Source of the DNA: Chitinophaga pinensis
GTDB lineage: Bacteria; Bacteroidota; Bacteroidia; SXHM01
Length of the DNA stretch: 64,000 bases
Direction: 5' to 3'
Assembly (NCBI GenBank): GCA_945889235.1
Contig: CAMDBK010000001.1
Location: 5,485-69,484 of the forward strand
Below the pieces are notes generated by a model. That model worked only from the letters and a program-made list of their open reading frames with translations. It made no database searches and had not been told where the DNA came from. This document shows, piece by piece, positions 5,032 to 64,000 of this stretch (the first letter of the stretch is position 1; every line of letters begins with the position of its first letter). The position numbers and the translations under genes were made by a program.

Positions 5032-5595
5032 ATGAAATACTTAATAGCAGGTCTTGGTAATATCGGAAGCGAGTATGCCGAGACCCGCCATAACATAGGT
5101 TTTAAAGTAGTGGATGCCCTTGCAAAGGCGTCCACTACTGTTTTTAAGCCCGACCGTTTGGCCGATGTGTGTGAAGTAAAACACAAAGGCCGCACGTTTA
5201 TTCTTATAAAGCCCACCACGTATATGAATCTGAGTGGTAAAGCCATTAAATATTGGCTTACAGCTGAAAAAATTTCTATCCGGAACCTATTAGTGGTCAC
5301 CGATGACCTTGCGCTCCCTTGTGGCGAACTTCGGCTGAGAGCCAAAGGCAGCGATGGCGGACACAACGGCTTAAAAAGCATACAATTTGAACTGAATACA
5401 AATGAATATCCACGCCTGCGCTTTGGTGTGGGAAATGATTTTGCCAAAGGCAGACAAGTAGATTATGTCTTGGGCGAATGGACGACTGAAGAAAAGCCCA
5501 TCATCAATGAAAGCATTCTTAAATCAGTGGAACTGATCAAAGATTTTGGTTCTATGGATATTGCTTTTGTGATGAATAAGTTCAATAAGAAGTAA
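5032..5595 (+). CDS. pth: Peptidyl-tRNA hydrolase
   Basis: MKYLIAGLGNIGSEYAETRHNIGF is the Pth signature. ATG at 5032 preferred over the TTG at 5020. Confidence 0.85.
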   Translation: MKYLIAGLGNIGSEYAETRHNIGFKVVDALAKASTTVFKPDRLADVCEVKHKGRTFILIKPTTYMNLSGKAIKYWLTAEKISIRNLLVVTDDLALPCGELRLRAKGSDGGHNGLKSIQFELNTNEYPRLRFGVGNDFAKGRQVDYVLGEWTTEEKPIINESILKSVELIKDFGSMDIAFVMNKFNKK

Positions 5596-5608
5596 AAAAA
5601 CTACATAC

Positions 5609-6475
5609 TTACTGGTATGCAGCACACTTTGCTTTCTTGTTTTTTATACCATATGAAAGTGTTGCGACTGTAAATGAATACCAGTCATTGTTTGTAGAGT
5701 TTCCTCTTTGTCTATCTACATTGCTTTCAGTTGTTCCGATTGAGCGATCAGATAATACGGCAGCTACATCAGTATATTCTGCACGCAAAACAATTGGTTC
5801 TGCATAGGTTTTACTTACATCATCCAGATAATCAGTAAAGGTAGGGCGCATCCCCCACTCTACTCCAAAAACAATTCCACTGGCAACATTGAATTTGAAT
5901 CCGATACCAAACGGAATAGAAAAACTTGTAAGTGAATATTTTTTTCTGTCGGGGTAAGCGGTTGTTCCTTGTCCCTCGGTACCAAGTGGCATCAGTGCAT
6001 AGTAACCAACATTTGCTACTGTATAATTTGTTCCGTTAATGGTGTAGGTTCCGGGATCTACAAAAGCTTTAGGGTTAAATTTAAAAACTCCGAAACCACC
6101 AAAAATATAAGGCGTGAACGGTGTTTTAGAATCACCTGCTATAAAAGGAAGAAAATTAATTTCAAGTTGAGCAGAGAATTCAGCAACCACTGATTTAAAA
6201 CTGAGGTTGCGTTGAATTTGTTCTGCGTTTGCTGATAATGCATCATTGCCCTCAATGCTTCCATACAGGAAACATAATTTACCTGAGAAATGTTCGTTAA
6301 AGTTGTGTCTGTAAAACGCACCGAATGCACCTTTGGGCAGGAAGAATATTTTTTTGCGATTTAATTCTCCGTTGTAAAACGAAACGCCTCCCATAACACC
6401 GAGTTCTGATTTTTGAGCTATGCTCGGCAAACCATGGATTAATGCAAAGAATGACAGTAATAAATACTTTTTCAT
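5609..6475 (-). CDS. Outer-membrane beta-barrel protein (DUF6089-like), paralog 1
   Basis: Signal peptide MKKYLLLSFFALIHGLPSIAQ. Alternating beta-strand pattern. Shares FTDY(L/I)DD(V/A)S and Y..L.P(L)(G/N)TEGQG motifs with the adjacent gene. Confidence 0.5.
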   Translation of the reverse strand: MKKYLLLSFFALIHGLPSIAQKSELGVMGGVSFYNGELNRKKIFFLPKGAFGAFYRHNFNEHFSGKLCFLYGSIEGNDALSANAEQIQRNLSFKSVVAEFSAQLEINFLPFIAGDSKTPFTPYIFGGFGVFKFNPKAFVDPGTYTINGTNYTVANVGYYALMPLGTEGQGTTAYPDRKKYSLTSFSIPFGIGFKFNVASGIVFGVEWGMRPTFTDYLDDVSKTYAEPIVLRAEYTDVAAVLSDRSIGTTESNVDRQRGNSTNNDWYSFTVATLSYGIKNKKAKCAAYQ

Positions 6476-6510
6476 TGGTTGGGGAGTGCCACAAAAACTG
6501 AGCCGCAGCA

Positions 6511-56383: not shown

Positions 56384-57466
56384 TTACACCGCCACTCCTA
56401 CCAGCATCATATCATCCAGCTGGCGGGCTGATTTTTTCCAGTTATCAATTTCAACTGAAAAGGCTTTTTCCTGTTCGGCTGAGGGTTTGGTATAATTAGC
56501 TGCCATGTTTTTGCGCAGGCGGGTAAGTCCGAACTTTTCATCATTGGCATTAAACTGGTCGGTTATGCCATCGCTGAACATATAGATGCGGTCGCCTGTT
56601 TGGTAGGGAATAGTTTGTGTGGAGTACTTGAATCCGGGTTTGAAATGGAAGCCTCCAAGACTGAAAAAATCTGCTTTCACTTCTTTCATATCTCCGTTAG
56701 CACTTATATAACACAGTCCCATTCCGGCTCCTGAAAAGTCAATTGTTTTTTGTTTGGTATCAATGCGGCACAGTGCCATTTCCATTCCATCGTGCACTTC
56801 TGAATCGCGTTTCTGATTCAGTGTTTTCTGTATCTCTATGTGTATGGTGTCTAATATTTCGGCTGTGCCGGCATGTTTATTTTCGCTGGTTATTTTGTTG
56901 AGCAGACAGTACCCTATCAGTGACATAAATGCACCGGGAACTCCGTGCCCTGTACAATCCACCGCTGCTATATATATATATCCGTTTGATTTATGATACC
57001 ATAAAAAATCACCGCTTACCACATCACGCGGGCGGAACAAAAAGAAGGAACCGGGAAAATCGGTTTTCATTTGTTCGGCATTTGAAATCAATGCTAACTG
57101 TATGCGCTGCGCGTAATCTATACTCTGCGATATTTTTTCAAGTGATTTGCTTAGATCTTTTTGTGCTAGTGAAAGTTCACTGTTCTTTTCATGCAAATCA
57201 CGGGTGCGGTCCTGCACCTTCTGTTCAAGGTTTTGATTCATTTGCATTACCTCATCCTGTTTTATTCCGGCAAGCATGGCAAACAACCCCAGAAACAAGG
57301 GTGCGCTGTCAATAACCCAATGCAGGGGCTGTGTGTGTTGAACCTGTTTTATGCTGTCTATTGTAAAAGGGAGACCCTGAATAAGAACATCTAAAATACT
57401 TGAGATTACAGGAAAACAGAAGCCAAAAAGGGCTCCGTAAATAAAGTAGCGTGTTCTGTAATTCAT
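56384..57466 (-). CDS. Membrane-anchored PP2C/SpoIIE-family Ser/Thr phosphatase (SiaA/RsbU-like)
   Basis: Two N-terminal TM helices and a coiled-coil. PP2C motifs DCTGHGVPGAFMS, MFSDGITDQF and a C-terminal DD. Confidence 0.7.
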   Translation of the reverse strand: MNYRTRYFIYGALFGFCFPVISSILDVLIQGLPFTIDSIKQVQHTQPLHWVIDSAPLFLGLFAMLAGIKQDEVMQMNQNLEQKVQDRTRDLHEKNSELSLAQKDLSKSLEKISQSIDYAQRIQLALISNAEQMKTDFPGSFFLFRPRDVVSGDFLWYHKSNGYIYIAAVDCTGHGVPGAFMSLIGYCLLNKITSENKHAGTAEILDTIHIEIQKTLNQKRDSEVHDGMEMALCRIDTKQKTIDFSGAGMGLCYISANGDMKEVKADFFSLGGFHFKPGFKYSTQTIPYQTGDRIYMFSDGITDQFNANDEKFGLTRLRKNMAANYTKPSAEQEKAFSVEIDNWKKSARQLDDMMLVGVAV

Positions 57467-57476
57467 TGGTTCTAAT

Positions 57477-57567
57477 CGTCACCCTGAACTTGTTTCAGGG
57501 TCTTTTATTAATTAATAGGTTTGTGAGATGCTGAAACAATCCCGATAACTATCGGGACAGCATGACG
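57477..57567. repeat. Two-hairpin palindromic element, type A, with core variant TCCCGATAACTATCGGGA nested in the loop of hairpin 2
   Basis: CGTCACCCTGAACTTGTTTCAGGGTC..GATGCTGAAACAA[TCCCGATAACTATCGGGA]CAGCATGACG. Lies between the DUF1987 gene stop and the PP2C gene start. Confidence 0.75.
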
Positions 57568-57570
57568 AAA

Positions 57571-57948
57571 CTATGCTACCTGAATTTCAAAGGGAATATC
57601 TATGATGCTTTGCAATTCTTCGCCTTTGGTCTTCATCATTTCGTCTGAGTTTTTGCAATGCCAGATTACTTTGGCTGTTTTGTTTTTGTCTATCAATTCC
57701 TGCATGCCGCTCATGATGTTGAACAGATGGCGGGTTGATGAGGAGTTGATATAATCAAGGTGAAGGTGAAGTTCAGTTGAATCAAGTGGTGATTGGTAGT
57801 ATTCGCTCAGCCATTCATAAACGGGTTTAAAAAATGCCTGTGAATCTTCGGGCAGGGCTTTTCCTGAAATAAGAAGTTGTCCGTTGCCGGCATCCAGTGA
57901 TATAGCGGGTGTATCTTCTGTTGCAGGTATATTGATGTTGTTTGCCAT
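57571..57948 (-). CDS. DUF1987 (SiaC-like) partner-switch protein
   Basis: 125 aa. LHLDYINSSSTRHLF resembles the DUF1987 phosphorylatable segment. Flanked by the PP2C and GHKL genes. Confidence 0.5.
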   Translation of the reverse strand: MANNINIPATEDTPAISLDAGNGQLLISGKALPEDSQAFFKPVYEWLSEYYQSPLDSTELHLHLDYINSSSTRHLFNIMSGMQELIDKNKTAKVIWHCKNSDEMMKTKGEELQSIIDIPFEIQVA

Positions 57949-57952
57949 CGGA

Positions 57953-59044
57953 TTAGAATGTTACATTTAAGGTGAAAAAACTCATGTTGTTATCCGCATC
58001 GTCAAAAGAGTATGCAAGTGGTCCGCTGCTTTCACGGGCTATTTCAATAAGGCCTAAACCTCCTCCGCCTTTTTCGCTGAACATTCCTTCTTTCAATGTT
58101 TTTTTGTACAGGTCTTTTAACTCGTAATTATTGAGTTTGTTAAGCCCTGTAATCTTTTCGCTCAGTATATTTTTAGTTTCAGAGGTTACCATATTTCCTG
58201 TGCTTATGGTGTAGTTCTGGTCATCAAATGTAATCATAAAAAGACCTTCTTTGTTCTGCGAATCTAATGAATGTCTTGAAACATTCTGCAACTGCTCGAC
58301 CAAAATAGAATATAAACTTTTTCCTCGTGAGCTTTCATCGGGCGAATACATGCGCTCCTGAATGATGTTGATGATGGGTAGAATTGAGTCTTTTGAAAAG
58401 TCGCCTTTGTAGACCATGAGTATGTTTGAGTTCTTTATCTCATCGTCAAACTGGCGGGTGAAGCGGAGTGTTTCTCCTACTTCGCGCTGCATGAGGTCTT
58501 CTTTTGATGCGAGTTTAAGTGAGAGGTAAAAGTTATAAAACTTTCCGTTTATGTCTTCGATATGGAAATCAATGGGCGGAACGGCTTTGCGTGCTATTTC
58601 AATCAGTCCGAGCCCGGCACCGCCTTTTGCACTAAACTGTTTGTTCTCCAGAATTTCGAAATAGAGGGCTTTGAGTTTATCTTTTTCAAGGGTGTTGAGT
58701 TGTTGCAGTTTTTCGCGGAGCATGTTTGCCCGCTCCATATCAATAAGATTGATGGAGCTGATGTAATTGGCTTCGCCCACTACGCGGGTTGAGAACAGGG
58801 TGCTGTCGTCCAGTCCATCGGGGTTATCGGGTTTGCCGTGGCGCACGAGGTTTTGAAAACACTCTACCATGATGTAGTTTACACGGTTGCGCATTTTTGA
58901 TAAATCCTGAAGACTGTTGACATTAAAATCGGTTAGACGGATTATTCCGTCAGTGATTTTATCGTTTACCTCGCCATTGAAAATGAGGCTCAGCCTGTCG
59001 TTGCTGAGTTTTTTGAACAGGTAATAGCTTTTTGATTCAGACAT
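57953..59044 (-). CDS. Tandem-duplicated GHKL/HATPase-like Ser kinase (SiaB/RsbW-like x2 in one polypeptide)
   Basis: Two ~180-aa halves. Each has an N-box-like E..QN(L/V)(V/S)RH and a G2-like KGG(A/G)GLGLIEIAR. 363 aa. Confidence 0.5.
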   Translation of the reverse strand: MSESKSYYLFKKLSNDRLSLIFNGEVNDKITDGIIRLTDFNVNSLQDLSKMRNRVNYIMVECFQNLVRHGKPDNPDGLDDSTLFSTRVVGEANYISSINLIDMERANMLREKLQQLNTLEKDKLKALYFEILENKQFSAKGGAGLGLIEIARKAVPPIDFHIEDINGKFYNFYLSLKLASKEDLMQREVGETLRFTRQFDDEIKNSNILMVYKGDFSKDSILPIINIIQERMYSPDESSRGKSLYSILVEQLQNVSRHSLDSQNKEGLFMITFDDQNYTISTGNMVTSETKNILSEKITGLNKLNNYELKDLYKKTLKEGMFSEKGGGGLGLIEIARESSGPLAYSFDDADNNMSFFTLNVTF

Positions 59045-59092
59045 AAGGGGGGAATAAGGTATGTTGTTTAACGATACTTTTTGAAATAGGTT

Positions 59093-60634
59093 TTAACACA
59101 ATTTTTGCATTGGCTTTGCTTTTGCCATGCTTTGCAGCCACATGTTAAGCTCTGCAGTACCCAGCGGGCGGTTTTTGAGTTGGGCAAACTGCGGTTGCAT
59201 GGCTTGGGCTATGCGTTTGGTATCAGCAAGGGATGAGGTGGTAAGTAATTGGTTGAGCAGACTTAATATCACTGTCTCCAAGGGATATAACAAATTGGTT
59301 TTTTTGTAAAACCGTTTGGCACTGCGCAAATGATTTTCAACCAAATCATGCTTACCCGCACCGTACCATGCAACAAGGGTAAAGAGCAAGCTGAAATCCC
59401 GTATATCCTGCCGCTCGCCTGTACGCCCAAATTCATTTATGCGCAGCAGCCAGCGCAAAGCCTCGGCATAATCATCAATTACAAAACAGCATACGGCTGC
59501 GTTGTGAATAAGTGAGAGAGCAAATGAATCAGGAACTTTATAAGTTTTTAGCCCCTTTTTAATTTCACTCAGCAGTGTGGGCAGATTAGCAAAGTCAGCT
59601 GTGTTGAGGCAAAGCAGCAACTGGTTTAATTTTATTTGCCAGAACCAACGGGCATTTTCGGTGGTGCCGTGCACGGTAATATTTTGTGCAAGGGTTAATA
59701 TTTCTTTGGCTGCAACATAGCGGTCTAACAAAAAACAGGTATTACAGAAGTGGATAAGAAATGCGCGGTAGGCATCTGACTTTTCTTTTTGCTGGTGAAC
59801 ATGGTCTTGCCACAAGCGGTTATTTTGCTTCAGGTATTCAAAACTTTTTTCATGATTACCCAATAGTTCATTGAGGTGCGACTGCGCATTATAATAAAAC
59901 CGTTGCGAACGAAAATTAAGAGCCTTGTTTTTATTCTTTAGCAGCGTATTGTGTTGTATTTTCAGCAGTTCCTTTTTCAGTTCAGCGGTGCGGCACAAGT
60001 TGTATTTGCGTTTAAGCAGAAAAATAACCTCACACAGGGTACGGTACTCTGTTTCATTGGCAATAAGGCGGTTCAATTCTTTTCTTCGGGCTGCAATGCG
60101 ATTCAATTCATTGCGGAAATCATCAGGAAAAAGGTCTTTGAGTAGTGCGCCCTGCCGTTTTAGTAGTTCCAGTTCGGTTAAATGATATTCATATTTTTCT
60201 GCCTGTTCACGGGCATCGGCAAGCAGTCTGCTACACTGCACAAACAGGTTTTTTCCGTACAATACTTTCTCCAGTTCAAGCAGGTATAGCAGATGGTTTT
60301 CAACGGTATCACTTTTACGGAAACCTGTTAAACTCTGGTGTACCAAGGCAGTCAGCAGGTTTTTGTAATGTGCAAAATCCCATCCGGGGTTTTTTTTCAG
60401 CAGGGTGGATTTCAGCTTTTCTTCACTGGCGTTGCCCGGCTGGTGCAGCCCATTAAATAAGAGCAGCAGGCGGGGACGGTTTTGCGCGGGATATTCCTTT
60501 AGCCGTGCCAGGCAAAATTGGGTTTCGCTCCGGTCCAGGCTCTGGATTAATTCCTGCAAATCACTGTTGCGCTGGCGCATAAGTTCGGCATTAACAATGT
60601 GTTTTACAAAGGTAGGATAAAAATGAAACTGCAA
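59093..60634 (-). CDS. All-helical 513-aa hypothetical protein (TPR-like), first gene of the putative Sia-like operon
   Basis: No catalytic motifs recognised. Same strand as the downstream genes, separated from them by 48 bp. Confidence 0.4.
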   Translation of the reverse strand: MQFHFYPTFVKHIVNAELMRQRNSDLQELIQSLDRSETQFCLARLKEYPAQNRPRLLLLFNGLHQPGNASEEKLKSTLLKKNPGWDFAHYKNLLTALVHQSLTGFRKSDTVENHLLYLLELEKVLYGKNLFVQCSRLLADAREQAEKYEYHLTELELLKRQGALLKDLFPDDFRNELNRIAARRKELNRLIANETEYRTLCEVIFLLKRKYNLCRTAELKKELLKIQHNTLLKNKNKALNFRSQRFYYNAQSHLNELLGNHEKSFEYLKQNNRLWQDHVHQQKEKSDAYRAFLIHFCNTCFLLDRYVAAKEILTLAQNITVHGTTENARWFWQIKLNQLLLCLNTADFANLPTLLSEIKKGLKTYKVPDSFALSLIHNAAVCCFVIDDYAEALRWLLRINEFGRTGERQDIRDFSLLFTLVAWYGAGKHDLVENHLRSAKRFYKKTNLLYPLETVILSLLNQLLTTSSLADTKRIAQAMQPQFAQLKNRPLGTAELNMWLQSMAKAKPMQKLC

Positions 60635-60863
60635 CGGTTTTTATTTTTCTGCTGTTGCGCAATGCCTTATGCTGTGCGGAATTTATACTTGCTGTTGCCC
60701 GGTATTTTAAATCCTTGCCGGCCTGTTACAGCAGTATTTTATCGTCCCTGCCTGCTCTCATTAACTGCTTCATTTTGGTTTTAACATTCGCGGGGGCGCT
60801 TCTACTTTTCGGTCATCTTTTAACCAAACGGATGATGCATAACCAACCTACTTCACACTACTG

Positions 60864-61100
60864 TTTCCGGTCGGAAAGTGCACTGCCGAAATTGAATTCA
60901 TGGTGTTTCCGGTCAGAAAGTATATCACCGAAATTCAATTCATCCACTTTCCGGTCGGAAAATGCACATCCTAAATTCAATTCACCCGCTGTCAGGTCGG
61001 AAAGTGCATTGCTGAAATCCAGTTTACCCGGTATCCGGTCAGAAAGTGCATTACTCAAATTGAATTTGCCCGCTGTCCGGTTGGCAAGCATATTAAATAA
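60864..61100. repeat. Tandem array of ~5.6 contiguous 42-44-bp direct repeats, each with a TTTCCGGTCGGAAA palindromic core
   Basis: Units start at 60864, 60906, 60948, 60992, 61034 and 61076 (degenerate). Lies in the 500-bp divergent region between the 513-aa gene and the 399-aa gene. Confidence 0.7.
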
Positions 61101-61133
61101 GCTTAAAAACAAGAAAAACTAAATCATAAACCC

Positions 61134-62333
61134 ATGCCATCACGCAAATTACCTAACTCCAACCCCAAACGCTACCGCGCCCTGCGCATGATCAACGACC
61201 GCAAAACAGTAACACCTCCCGCTGAGGTGCCGCTTAACTCCGCTACCATTATGCGGTTCGATTTGTTTTTTCCTACTTACAAAAGTAAGATACTGGCTAT
61301 TGCCGCTGCCCTGTCGGCACAGGGTGCAGCCAGCGCATTGGTAAAAACAGCCAAACAGCTTGCCGGCTGGGTAGTGGATGATTTTTATGAAGCCCTGCAA
61401 CGGGCAGTAAGGCGTGGGGTAATTGATGCAGCGCAGCGCCCCCTGTATAGCTTAGACATGAATGAAACAGGCACGCCAAAGCTAAGCAGCGAACAGGATA
61501 TATTAGACTGGGGTGAACATGCACACGATGGCGAAACTGCCCGTGTAGCAGGCGGGGGTGTACCCATCACCTTTCCTTCATTGGCTGAACTGGACAACGC
61601 TACCGCTGATTTTAAAACCAAGAACCTGAACCAGGCTGCCGCCAAAACAGCGTATGATAACGCGCAGCAGGCATTAGTAACCGATAACACAGAAGCTGAT
61701 AAACTGGTTCTCAAATGCTGGAACGAAATAGAAACCAATTTTGATGAGGGCGATAAGCCCAGCATGAGGCGGCAGGCACGTGAATGGGGTGTGGTTTATA
61801 TCCCGGCAAAAGGTGAAACACTTGACCCCGATGAGTTTTCGGTAAAAGGGAAAGTAACCGACCTGAATACAGGCAACGGAATAGAGGATGTGGAACTGAA
61901 AGTAGTGCAAACCTCTGAAACCATACTGAGTGAAAGCAATGGCGATTACCTGATTACTTACCTGCTTCCCGGAATTTATACCCTGGAAGCAAGCAAAGCC
62001 GGATACACCGCCCAAACCCTGCCGGGCATAGTGGTAACGGCAGGCAACATAACCGGGCTGGATATTGAGCTTACACCGGTGGCGGTTACCGGCACCGTAA
62101 GCGGTACTGTTTCTCTTACAGGTATACCCGTAAGCGGAGCAACAGTAAGCATTGAGGGATTTCCATTGCTTACAGCGGTAACCAACCCGGCAGGGCTTTA
62201 CAGCATTGGCAATATACCCGCAGGAGCGCAAAACGTGAAGGCGCAAATGCCGCCACCTTCAGGTGCTTTGCCCCAAGTGCATCCGGTTACGGTTGTAGCG
62301 GGAAGCGAGGTAACTGATGATTTCAATTTTTAA
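61134..62333 (+). CDS. Hypothetical protein with C-terminal carboxypeptidase-regulatory-like/Ig-like beta-sandwich repeats, no signal peptide
   Basis: VKGKVTDLNTGNGIEDVELKV..GDYLITYLLPGIYTLEASKAGY pattern. GC-richer than the window average. Confidence 0.4.
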   Translation: MPSRKLPNSNPKRYRALRMINDRKTVTPPAEVPLNSATIMRFDLFFPTYKSKILAIAAALSAQGAASALVKTAKQLAGWVVDDFYEALQRAVRRGVIDAAQRPLYSLDMNETGTPKLSSEQDILDWGEHAHDGETARVAGGGVPITFPSLAELDNATADFKTKNLNQAAAKTAYDNAQQALVTDNTEADKLVLKCWNEIETNFDEGDKPSMRRQAREWGVVYIPAKGETLDPDEFSVKGKVTDLNTGNGIEDVELKVVQTSETILSESNGDYLITYLLPGIYTLEASKAGYTAQTLPGIVVTAGNITGLDIELTPVAVTGTVSGTVSLTGIPVSGATVSIEGFPLLTAVTNPAGLYSIGNIPAGAQNVKAQMPPPSGALPQVHPVTVVAGSEVTDDFNF

Positions 62334-62351: not shown

Positions 62352-64000
62352 ATGAAAAAGTTCCTGCTGCTCTTTTTAATTGTCAATTATCAATTATCAA
62401 TTGTCAATTCACAAGCCCAAACCCTTTCGGTAACCCTAACCCCTTACGAATATGCCAACGGATATACTATCAGTTGCAACGGTGCGCAAGACGGCAGCAT
62501 TGACTTAACCGTTACCAATGCAACAGGTCCTTATACTGTGTTATGGAATGATGAAGTAACCACCCAAGACCGTGAAAACCTTGCAGCCGGTGAATACACG
62601 GTACTGGTAATTGACAGTTTAAGCGATACCGCCACCGCTTCAATAACATTATTGCAGCCTTCGGCTATTGATATTTCACTTTACAGTCCGAGTTACAGCG
62701 GCTATAATATACATTGCAACGGTGGAAGCGATGGAGAAATTGTTGCCAATGTTTCGGGCGGTGAAACACCTTATACTTATTTATGGAGTAACGATAGTAT
62801 TACTTCCAGCATCGCTGATTTAGTTACCGGTGAATATACCGTTACCGTTACTGATTCGAGAGCTTGCTTTGCTTCGCTCGCACTAACGGTAACGGAACCC
62901 CCTGCGCTGCAAAGCAGCATCAGCGCATGGGAAAACTCGTTTGGCTTTAACATTAATTGCAATGGCGCTGAAACCGGAAGCATTGATTTGGAAGTAAGCG
63001 GAGGCGCATTACCTTATGATTATACCTGGAACTCAGGCGACTTTACCCAAGATGTGAGTAATGCCGTTGCAGATTTTTACATGGTGCGCATTGAAGATAA
63101 TAATGGGTGTGTAAAGTTCGACAGTATTGTGCTGAATGAACCACCTGCTTTGCAGCTTGAAGCCAATCTGTATCAATATCCCAACGGAACATTTTTTACC
63201 TGTGCAGCCTGTCACGATGGGCAAGCCACCCTGGTTGCAACAGGCGGTACCGGCTCTTACAACTTTGAATGGGCTATGTTTAATGATGAAAATAACACAG
63301 CCGGAATTGACAGCATTTATGCCGACAGCCTTATTACTGCCGTTGTTACCGATGCGGCAGGCTGCACCGATACGCTTGTGTTTAACCTGCCCGGTGAAGG
63401 AAACGGAAATCATCCGCAACTGATTGTTACAAAATCAGAATATGCCGGTGGCTATCACGTAAGCTGCAACGGCTGCGCCAATGGATGGATTAACCTTGAA
63501 GCAGTGGGCGGCACCGGGCCTTATACCTTTTGGTGGGAAGACCTTGCCCAAGGCGAGGCAGGCGCCAACGCACAAAACCGCGACAGCCTTGCAGCCGGAC
63601 AATACCGCGTACGCATTACCGACAGTCAGGGGCTGATGACTAATACCGTAATTACACTGCTGCAACCCGCCCTTTTTACCCTGAACGTAAGCAGCACTAT
63701 TTATACCTGCAACGGGCAAAATGAAGGCAAGGTGCAGGCAGATGCTAACGGAGGAACTCCACCTTATACCTATCAATGGCAGAAAGACGGTACCCTGCTT
63801 GAAATCAATAATGATGATTTTGAACTTACCGAAACAGGCAATTACACGGTACTGGTTACCGATGCCAACGGTAATACACTTTCCGATACTGCGCTGGTTG
63901 CAGCGCGTGCTGCACTTACTATTACTGCACAGGGCATTGAACAATACCCCGATGGCGCACACACCGCCTGCTCTTACAACAACGGAACAATGACTATACA
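62352..64000 (+). CDS. SprB-repeat gliding-motility adhesin-like protein, 5' part (runs off the window)
   Basis: Hand translation from the ATG at 62352: signal peptide, then repeated (Y/I)(S/H)CNG..DG.I......GG..PY(T/D)Y.W units. No stop to base 64000. Absent from the ORF track. Confidence 0.7.
   Translation, partial: MKKFLLLFLIVNYQLSIVNSQAQTLSVTLTPYEYANGYTISCNGAQDGSIDLTVTNATGPYTVLWNDEVTTQDRENLAAGEYTVLVIDSLSDTATASITLLQPSAIDISLYSPSYSGYNIHCNGGSDGEIVANVSGGETPYTYLWSNDSITSSIADLVTGEYTVTVTDSRACFASLALTVTEPPALQSSISAWENSFGFNINCNGAETGSIDLEVSGGALPYDYTWNSGDFTQDVSNAVADFYMVRIEDNNGCVKFDSIVLNEPPALQLEANLYQYPNGTFFTCAACHDGQATLVATGGTGSYNFEWAMFNDENNTAGIDSIYADSLITAVVTDAAGCTDTLVFNLPGEGNGNHPQLIVTKSEYAGGYHVSCNGCANGWINLEAVGGTGPYTFWWEDLAQGEAGANAQNRDSLAAGQYRVRITDSQGLMTNTVITLLQPALFTLNVSSTIYTCNGQNEGKVQADANGGTPPYTYQWQKDGTLLEINNDDFELTETGNYTVLVTDANGNTLSDTALVAARAALTITAQGIEQYPDGAHTACSYNNGTMTI

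Follow-up and report, generated by a model that had tools for sequence, protein, structure and literature searches.

A Sia-type phospho-switch without a diguanylate cyclase lies beside a RusR-like helical-repeat gene and a SprB adhesin operon in an uncultured Bacteroidota lineage

Sia-type partner switches have so far been known only as regulators of a cyclic di-GMP (c-di-GMP) cyclase in Pseudomonas. In that system the small phosphoprotein SiaC is phosphorylated at Thr68 (PMC7278518, PMC7647112), and the kinase SiaB, whose catalytic glutamate is E61 (PMC7647112), forms a homodimer and does not bind SiaD, the output protein (PMC7278518). A second described protein, BT2802 or RusR, is a candidate positive regulator of the ribose polysaccharide utilization locus of Bacteroides thetaiotaomicron; deletion of rusR leaves only about 10% activation of the adjacent operon, so that RusR is needed for about 90% of it (bioRxiv 10.1101/574913; PMC12596196). 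Here we describe relatives of both systems side by side in a 64,000-nucleotide stretch of Bacteroidota DNA (hereafter the window), which is part of a 77.5-kb metagenome contig (ENA ERZ27280297 k141_1274647) that continues for 4 kb past the right end of the window. The locus is best read as two adjacent modules: a kinase–SiaC–PP2C switch, and a gene for an all-helical tetratricopeptide repeat (TPR) protein together with a divergently transcribed adhesin operon (Table 1). The window is a lineage-specific juxtaposition of these two modules, because the neighbours of the modules differ in the closest relatives of each side.

Family matches and conserved catalytic and acceptor residues support the presence of a SiaB/SiaC/SiaA-type phospho-switch without a diguanylate cyclase. 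A first-pass annotation of the window had proposed such a switch as part of a four-gene cassette, and the four co-oriented minus-strand open reading frames (ORFs) that it listed are present exactly where it placed them. In hidden Markov model (HMM) searches, the 363-aa protein matched PF19788 in two stretches (214 bits), giving two DUF6272/SiaB_fam_kinase domains, and matched NF038262, ‘SiaB family protein kinase’, with 243 bits against a cutoff of 85, which bears out the proposed GHKL kinase identity. The assignment of the 125-aa protein to DUF1987/SiaC was likewise confirmed by PF09345 (114 bits, cutoff 24.5). The 360-aa protein matched the SpoIIE/PP2C model PF07228 with 74 bits, and its best relative among solved structures is the SiaA PP2C domain (6k4e, E=3e-30). 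Judging from these sequences, the three genes very probably encode a complete Sia-type partner-switch phospho-module.

The two halves of the kinase are 39% identical to each other, and both keep the GGxGLGL box and a catalytic Glu/N-box motif (E61-x-x-Q64-N65 in the N-terminal half and E250-x-x-Q253-N254 in the C-terminal half). The catalytic E61 of Pseudomonas SiaB aligns to E250 and, through the internal duplication, also corresponds to E61 of the N-terminal half. Across 70 homologues, E61, Q64, N65 and G141-G142-A143 were invariant in the N-terminal half and G144 and G146 nearly so; in the C-terminal half, G329 and G331 were invariant and E250, Q253, N254, H258 and G327 nearly invariant. 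The N-terminal half is the more strictly conserved within the family, yet it is the more divergent from Pseudomonas SiaB. An AlphaFold2 (AF2) model of the protein had a predicted TM-score (pTM) of 0.82, and one SiaB-sized domain of this model (about 180 aligned columns) superposed on chains A and B of SiaB (6kko) with target-normalised TM-scores of 0.79–0.83; the structural matches that ranked after SiaB were SpoIIAB, UsfX and anti-sigma-F kinases. Since SiaB of Pseudomonas acts as a dimer, the tandem kinase may most simply be regarded as a covalent pseudo-dimer. Its duplication, which had first been taken as unusual, is instead a common Bacteroidota architecture: homologues make up 897 protein clusters and were matched in 278 species genomes. 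At NCBI, such tandem proteins already bear the name ‘SiaB family protein kinase’. A separate single-domain SiaB-like ORF of 196 aa was seen in one related locus (L006, 3277–3867, minus strand), 2.5 kb from the tandem kinase and on the opposite strand; therefore, single and tandem forms can share one genome.

The window SiaC aligned without gaps to P. aeruginosa SiaC (6k4f/6kko), which placed Thr68 of the latter on Ser69, within a Y-I-N-S motif, and Ser69 is the predicted phospho-acceptor. This column holds Ser in 65 and Thr in 5 of the 70 SiaC-family proteins compared, and the surrounding Y-x-N motif is invariant. Alignment of the phosphatase to 6k4e showed conservation of the GDF, VDCTGHG, SDG and DD motifs, which are the metal-binding Asp positions of SiaA (PMC7647112). 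The SiaA model NF038263 scored 164 bits against a cutoff of 700 and covered only positions 377–654 of its 658; the window protein has no large sensor domain, as the roughly 370-residue sensor part of SiaA (periplasmic/HAMP; full length about 660 aa) is missing. Hydropathy analysis found two N-terminal hydrophobic segments, at residues ~7–35 and ~48–69, followed by a coiled-coil linker, in support of the membrane anchoring that had been suggested. The 104-nt gap between the SiaC and PP2C genes (57467–57570, minus strand) contains two short palindromes, CCCGATAgtTATCGGG and ACCCTGAAacaaGTTCAGGGT.

We found no GGDEF motif in any ORF of at least 120 aa in the 64 kb of the window. The possibility of a GGDEF/SiaD gene just outside the window was ruled out by the contig sequence to its end: the 4 kb past the right end of the window contain no GGDEF gene and hold nothing but the remainder of the SprB gene and small ORFs without known identity. 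We also surveyed the tandem kinase more widely, examining the best 80 loci, with 10-kb flanks, from the 278 species-representative genomes that matched. The carriers among these best 80 were nearly all uncultured Bacteroidota, with the addition of one Thiohalospira metagenome-assembled genome, and no GGDEF-like motif was present among their 1,225 ORFs. The lack of a GGDEF partner thus holds for the window, for the contig end and for the 80 related loci. The DUF1987 match, the GHKL homology and the lack of a GGDEF gene adjoining the window, on which the first-pass annotation had been staked beforehand, all came out in its favour. Because there is no diguanylate cyclase at the locus, the target of SiaC here must be something else, and the occurrence of the same switch without any cyclase here and in hundreds of Bacteroidota genomes points to a different, undescribed output.

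The kinase gene is complete in 78 of the fetched loci, and gene order was counted in these. SiaC lies directly 3′ of the kinase in 63, a further gene for a SiaA-like PP2C is present within 10 kb in 39, and 22 show the colinear order kinase–SiaC–PP2C; no neighbour of the kinase is universal except SiaC. Genes for type IX secretion system (T9SS) cargo were found near the kinase in 18 of the 80 loci, which we estimate to be about the chance level for Bacteroidota, and therefore we claim no association. In 22 loci (L061, at 5428–6477, and 21 other Bacteroidales loci among L043–L082), a REC-Guanylate_cyc gene of about 349 codons (a response regulator/class III adenylate-guanylate cyclase) lies near the kinase–SiaC pair, most often three genes upstream; this may be an alternative nucleotide-cyclase output in that clade, or inherited synteny. 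The literature that we searched contained a single paper that mentions DUF1987; it deals with Pseudomonas and speculates that DUF1987 proteins in general modulate proteins adjacent to them (PMC8457831). The description of this switch as an undescribed Bacteroidota variant therefore stands for the searched literature, although the variant is widespread and has already been named automatically in databases.

The helical gene upstream of the kinase is not a fourth member of this cassette. In the seven closest species, whose kinases are 88–90% identical, the upstream gene encodes a T9SS-tailed secreted protein or is unrelated, and when 82 loci were searched with a profile of the helical protein, the sole match was the window's own contig, which ruled out the helical protein as a conserved cassette component. 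Alignment of the regions upstream of the kinase in the window and in these relatives (L003–L009) revealed conservation limited to the last ~55 nt, whatever gene precedes. An exact core of this leader, at 59070–59094, recurs in six of the seven closest relatives (L004–L009). The leader includes a near-palindrome, TCGTTAAACAACA in the window and TCGTTxAACGA in the relatives, where the surrounding sequence reads …AAAACCTATTTCAAAAxGTATCGTTxAACGACA…, and the stop codon of the helical gene falls inside it. The leader may be an operator or a 5′ untranslated region (5′-UTR) element of the Sia module.

The helical protein had been called uncharacterised, and no Pfam domain matched it. The NCBIfam BT2802 model NF058569, however, aligned over its full length (E=7e-16) with 58 bits against a cutoff of 550, a score that identifies it by sequence as a distant member of the RusR/BT2802 superfamily, at the superfamily level only. 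A profile search for the helical family returned 5,570 representative clusters of ~500-aa proteins, and the BT2802 model matched 80 of 80 sampled clusters. The protein has the fold of a TPR superhelix preceded by a helical domain at the N terminus, a Rap/NprR-like architecture that suits a regulator acting through protein–protein contacts. The longer ORF of this gene (59093–60634) gives 513 aa from a TTG at 60634, the size first reported. The gene itself is confirmed, but its product is more likely 495 aa long: the start is most likely the ATG at 60580 and the TTG is unlikely, because a Bacteroidota-type −7 box and a conserved block, ACACATTGTTAATG, lie downstream of the TTG. Gene callers also choose this ATG, and an equivalent box, TATATTTG, is conserved together with the downstream block upstream of helical homologues.

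Considering the divergent side of the helical gene, we found that its relatives recurrently lie near SiaC genes and surface-protein operons. In the window, the operon opens with a 399-aa CarboxypepD_reg protein, and the next gene encodes a SprB-repeat adhesin (PF13573, 178 bits in 6 stretches). Orthologues of the 399-aa protein occupy the same position beside the helical gene in L089 and L093, so that the operons of the close clade (the window and the loci with 72% and 69% identical helical proteins) open with a CarboxypepD_reg protein of 396–399 aa. All close-subfamily homologues (47–72% identity) with visible upstream DNA face a SprB, Por_Secre_tail or CarboxypepD_reg operon, except those in L091/L092, which face a 133-aa gene without assignment, an array and an fn3 gene and have no SiaC nearby. 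In a clade of 502-aa helical proteins (47–52% identity; L083–88 and L095–96), a stand-alone SiaC gene opens the divergent operon in all four lineages with visible upstream DNA. These SiaC proteins have 121–123 aa and a Thr acceptor and match PF09345 with 123–135 bits; the gene that follows encodes a giant SprB protein of 1594–2377 aa in three of the four lineages and is a contig-truncated ORF in L095. The 399-aa gene takes the position of this orphan SiaC, and we therefore searched its N-terminal half, which has no assigned domain, for a hidden SiaC-like domain; there was no signal with filters off.

The association extends to distant relatives. In L100/L101 (24% identity), a SiaC-family gene lies immediately downstream of the TPR gene in the same orientation, with a CHU_C gene after it, and the TPR gene faces a Por_Secre_tail operon. 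Among the products of this operon are a stand-alone LytTR protein and a homologue of the 399-aa protein with 50% identity. The two distant members without a SiaC gene nearby, in L099 and L102, do not face a surface-protein operon; that in L099 faces a REC-PAS-PP2C gene. Overall, six of ten fully visible loci have a SiaC-family gene no more than two genes away from a helical-family member, in three gene arrangements, that of the window being TPR gene, kinase, SiaC, PP2C. Among 1,217 other ORFs, by comparison, SiaC occurred solely directly after the kinase. Because this background is about 1 in 1,000 genes or fewer, we estimate the probability of chance adjacency of SiaC and TPR genes in three or four lineages at ~1e-6 or less, assuming that the lineages are independent. 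These results make the adhesion-related output suggested in the first-pass annotation plausible, as the helical family recurs near SiaC genes and SprB/T9SS operons, but the linkage to the kinase is missing in close relatives. Two scans of IMG/VR for more contexts of the helical family gave no matches.

Between the helical gene and the 399-aa gene lies a phased tandem array that ends 46 bp upstream of the ATG of the latter. Its palindrome, TTTCCGGTCGGAAA, has 9 matches where 0.65 are expected, and the invariant columns of the array fall in the palindrome. Arrays of the same kind were found beside related genes: at the locus of the 72% homologue (L093, 2552–2800), about six copies of the same palindrome are spaced 42 bp apart; the array at the locus of the 69% homologue (L089, 2171–2487) has a 43-bp unit with TGCAAAccTTTGCA; that of L100 (2634–2871), with a 42-bp unit and CATTTTGgtttCAAAATG, lies directly upstream of a 400-aa gene; and that of L091 (6304–6526) has 10.6 copies of a 21-bp unit with TCATATAAgtTTTATATGA. 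The arrays always adjoin the first surface-protein gene, ~35–95 bp from its ATG, and the palindrome sequence varies by lineage. Because 21, 42 and 43 bp correspond to two or four helical turns, the palindromes would all lie on one face of the DNA, an arrangement that fits cooperative binding by a dimeric factor with lineage-specific specificity. Intergenic regions of the SiaC–SprB type contain conserved blocks and no arrays. We also considered whether the array is a known RNA and rejected this; there was no Rfam match, the fold z-score was marginal (−1.9), and the 6+2+6 palindrome cannot form a full hairpin. Two ORFs over the array (60655–61122, plus strand, 155 aa, and 60858–61112, minus strand, 84 aa) are translation artefacts that repeat a FRSESALPKLNS-like peptide, and in L089 and L100 the same artefact is annotated as a gene (141 aa and 146 aa, respectively).

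These observations are consistent with a mechanism in which the switch acts on the TPR protein. The tandem kinase would phosphorylate Ser69 of SiaC and the membrane-anchored PP2C would remove this phosphate. Following the Pseudomonas precedent, SiaC would bind its target solely in the unphosphorylated state, and this target might here be the TPR protein in place of SiaD. Binding or release of SiaC would then switch positive control of the adhesin operon by the TPR protein, and envelope or surface signals sensed through PP2C would set adhesin expression instead of c-di-GMP. In the sister lineages, where SiaC is the first gene of the target operon, this would create feedback. The parts of this proposal differ in strength. 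The TPR protein probably regulates the divergent adhesin operon; its coupling to SiaC is a tentative suggestion that we would not yet call probable; and the two-module explanation that includes this link has, in our judgement, close to an even chance of being correct. The broader idea that SiaC phosphoproteins are the signal input for RusR-like, Rap-fold TPR regulators across Bacteroidota, driving T9SS adhesin and gliding operons with palindrome arrays, is a speculation that we regard as rather unlikely.

Several observations weigh against this interpretation. The TPR–kinase juxtaposition is unique to the window lineage and is missing in the seven closest kinase loci, and the closest helical homologues (72% and 69%) are followed by unrelated DNA or purD instead of the kinase. 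Because the kinase operon has its own conserved leader, co-regulation with the helical gene is not required. It may also be the adhesin, and not the TPR protein, to which the SiaC genes beside TPR homologues are linked. DNA binding by RusR has never been demonstrated, and in HMM searches neither the helical protein nor any of 80 relatives matched a DNA-binding model, helix-turn-helix (HTH) or other. The contexts inspected number 10, in a family of more than 5,000 clusters. The adjacency might therefore be a coincidence, with the switch acting on an unlinked partner while the TPR protein regulates the adhesin operon independently. This view, which we consider a serious if somewhat improbable alternative, gains from the differing neighbours on both sides of the module in its closest relatives, where no TPR gene lies within 10 kb, as well as from the narrow match of the helical profile, the separate kinase leader and the lack of any universal neighbour other than SiaC. 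What argues against coincidence is that TPR–SiaC adjacency occurs independently in other lineages, in other gene orders and at identities down to 24%, and that SiaC genes are otherwise very rare.

Two other alternatives concern the output of the switch itself. One half of the kinase might, like SpoIIAB and RsbW, sequester a sigma factor or another regulator, to be released by unphosphorylated SiaC. The ranking of SpoIIAB, UsfX and the anti-sigma-F kinases directly after SiaB among the structural matches would agree with this, and the strict conservation of the N-terminal half despite its distance from SiaB could reflect a second function. However, no gene of the 20-kb locus L001 has a sigma-70-family Pfam match, both halves carry full ATP-binding and catalytic motifs, and the homodimeric SiaB does not bind SiaD (PMC7278518), so that the tandem fusion is more simply a covalent dimer; we consider sequestration by the kinase distinctly improbable. 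Less probable still, to the point of being very hard to sustain, is that the switch follows conventional SiaABCD logic, its diguanylate cyclase being encoded at an unlinked site of the genome. Just 77.5 kb of the genome is visible, which leaves room for such a gene, but the 80 related loci with their 10-kb flanks contain no GGDEF, and the SiaA, SiaB and SiaC equivalog models all score far below their cutoffs. In addition, c-di-GMP enzymes are, to our knowledge, rare or absent in most Bacteroidota.

The most interesting element of the locus is not the kinase duplication, but the recurrent association of SiaC, TPR gene and adhesin operon with phased arrays. The recurrence of SiaC together with a RusR-like TPR protein and a T9SS adhesin provides a testable candidate for the output of the switch. 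If true, the link would represent a new output class for Sia-type switches and the first mechanistic handle on the RusR family. It would connect signalling at the envelope with the expression of adhesin and gliding genes, an area that is poorly understood, and would suggest a signal route into the RusR family, for which the evidence so far is only genetic.

Additional features were noted at these loci. The first divergent gene in L099 (7331–7780) and L100 (7321–7764) encodes a conserved small protein of 147–149 aa (32% identity, no Pfam match), which in L100 is followed by the gene for the stand-alone LytTR DNA-binding protein (110 aa); the latter could be the DNA-binding partner there. Downstream of helical homologues lie TIR/ThsB-like and TPR-S genes, a bacterial gasdermin gene, and integrase and HTH_17 genes (L086, 14573–16766; L087, 10006–10707; L083, 12596–15080; L094, 3376–5880), and the adhesin/regulator modules seem to lie in variable, island-like regions. 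The window locus had also been described as a GC-richer block. The difference is marginal: the GC content here is 0.41–0.45, the mean of the window is ~0.40, and values of 0.48–0.50 are reached in other stretches; GC content is not distinctive here, and we dropped it as a sign of horizontal transfer.

Table 1. Positions of the features of the locus within the window
Feature	Position	Strand	Basis or remark
Membrane-anchored PP2C phosphatase, 360 aa	56384..57466	-	PF07228, 6k4e match, hydropathy
SiaC-family (DUF1987) phosphoprotein, 125 aa, predicted acceptor Ser69	57571..57948	-	PF09345
SiaB-family Ser/Thr kinase in tandem form, two GHKL-like halves, 363 aa	57953..59044	-	PF19788, NF038262
Conserved 5′ leader/control region of kinase gene	59045..59097	-	Alignment with L003–L009
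RusR/BT2802-superfamily all-helical TPR protein, 495 aa	59093..60580	-	Candidate regulator of adhesin operon; candidate SiaC partner
Bacteroidota-type −7 promoter box of helical gene, TACCTTTG (TAnnTTTG)	60607..60614	-	Read from sequence
Phased tandem array, 42-bp unit, 5.4 copies, palindrome TTTCCGGTCGGAAA in each unit	60863..61088	.	Tandem Repeats Finder (TRF), repeat families
First gene of divergent operon, 399 aa, two CarboxypepD_reg domains	61134..62333	+	PF13620, 82 bits
SprB-repeat adhesin gene, 1145 aa in full contig, cut by window end	62352..64000	+	PF13573

Compared with known systems, the switch most resembles SiaABCD of P. aeruginosa (PA0169–PA0172). The fold and motifs of its kinase match SiaB, its DUF1987 phosphoprotein has an acceptor at the position of Thr68, the catalytic residues of its PP2C match those of SiaA, and its kinase and phosphatase presumably oppose each other in acting on a single small protein. 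It differs in having no SiaD/GGDEF protein, a kinase that is a tandem fusion, Ser rather than Thr as the acceptor, a phosphatase without the ~370-residue N-terminal sensor/HAMP part, the gene order B-C-A rather than A-B-C-D, and scores below the cutoffs of all three equivalog models. The helical protein shares with RusR (BT2802) a length of about 500 aa, an all-helical structure, full-length homology and a position beside the operon that it is thought to control. Unlike RusR, it scores 58 bits against the family cutoff of 550, its neighbours are a T9SS/SprB adhesin operon and a Sia module rather than ribokinases and SusC/D, its gene is divergent from the operon whereas that of RusR lies upstream on the same strand, and it is linked to SiaC-family genes. 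Its TPR superhelix with an N-terminal helical domain recalls the RRNPP regulators of Firmicutes (Rap, NprR and PlcR), from which it is set apart by a lack of sequence similarity, by the absence of a detectable HTH and by its phylum; no cognate peptide gene is evident at the window, where candidates were not searched for systematically. Finally, although SiaC is a DUF1987 protein without a canonical STAS domain and no sigma factor is encoded nearby in the 20-kb locus L001, the switch shares with RsbU/V/W and SpoIIE/AA/AB the logic of a PP2C phosphatase and a GHKL kinase acting on a small phosphorylatable antagonist.

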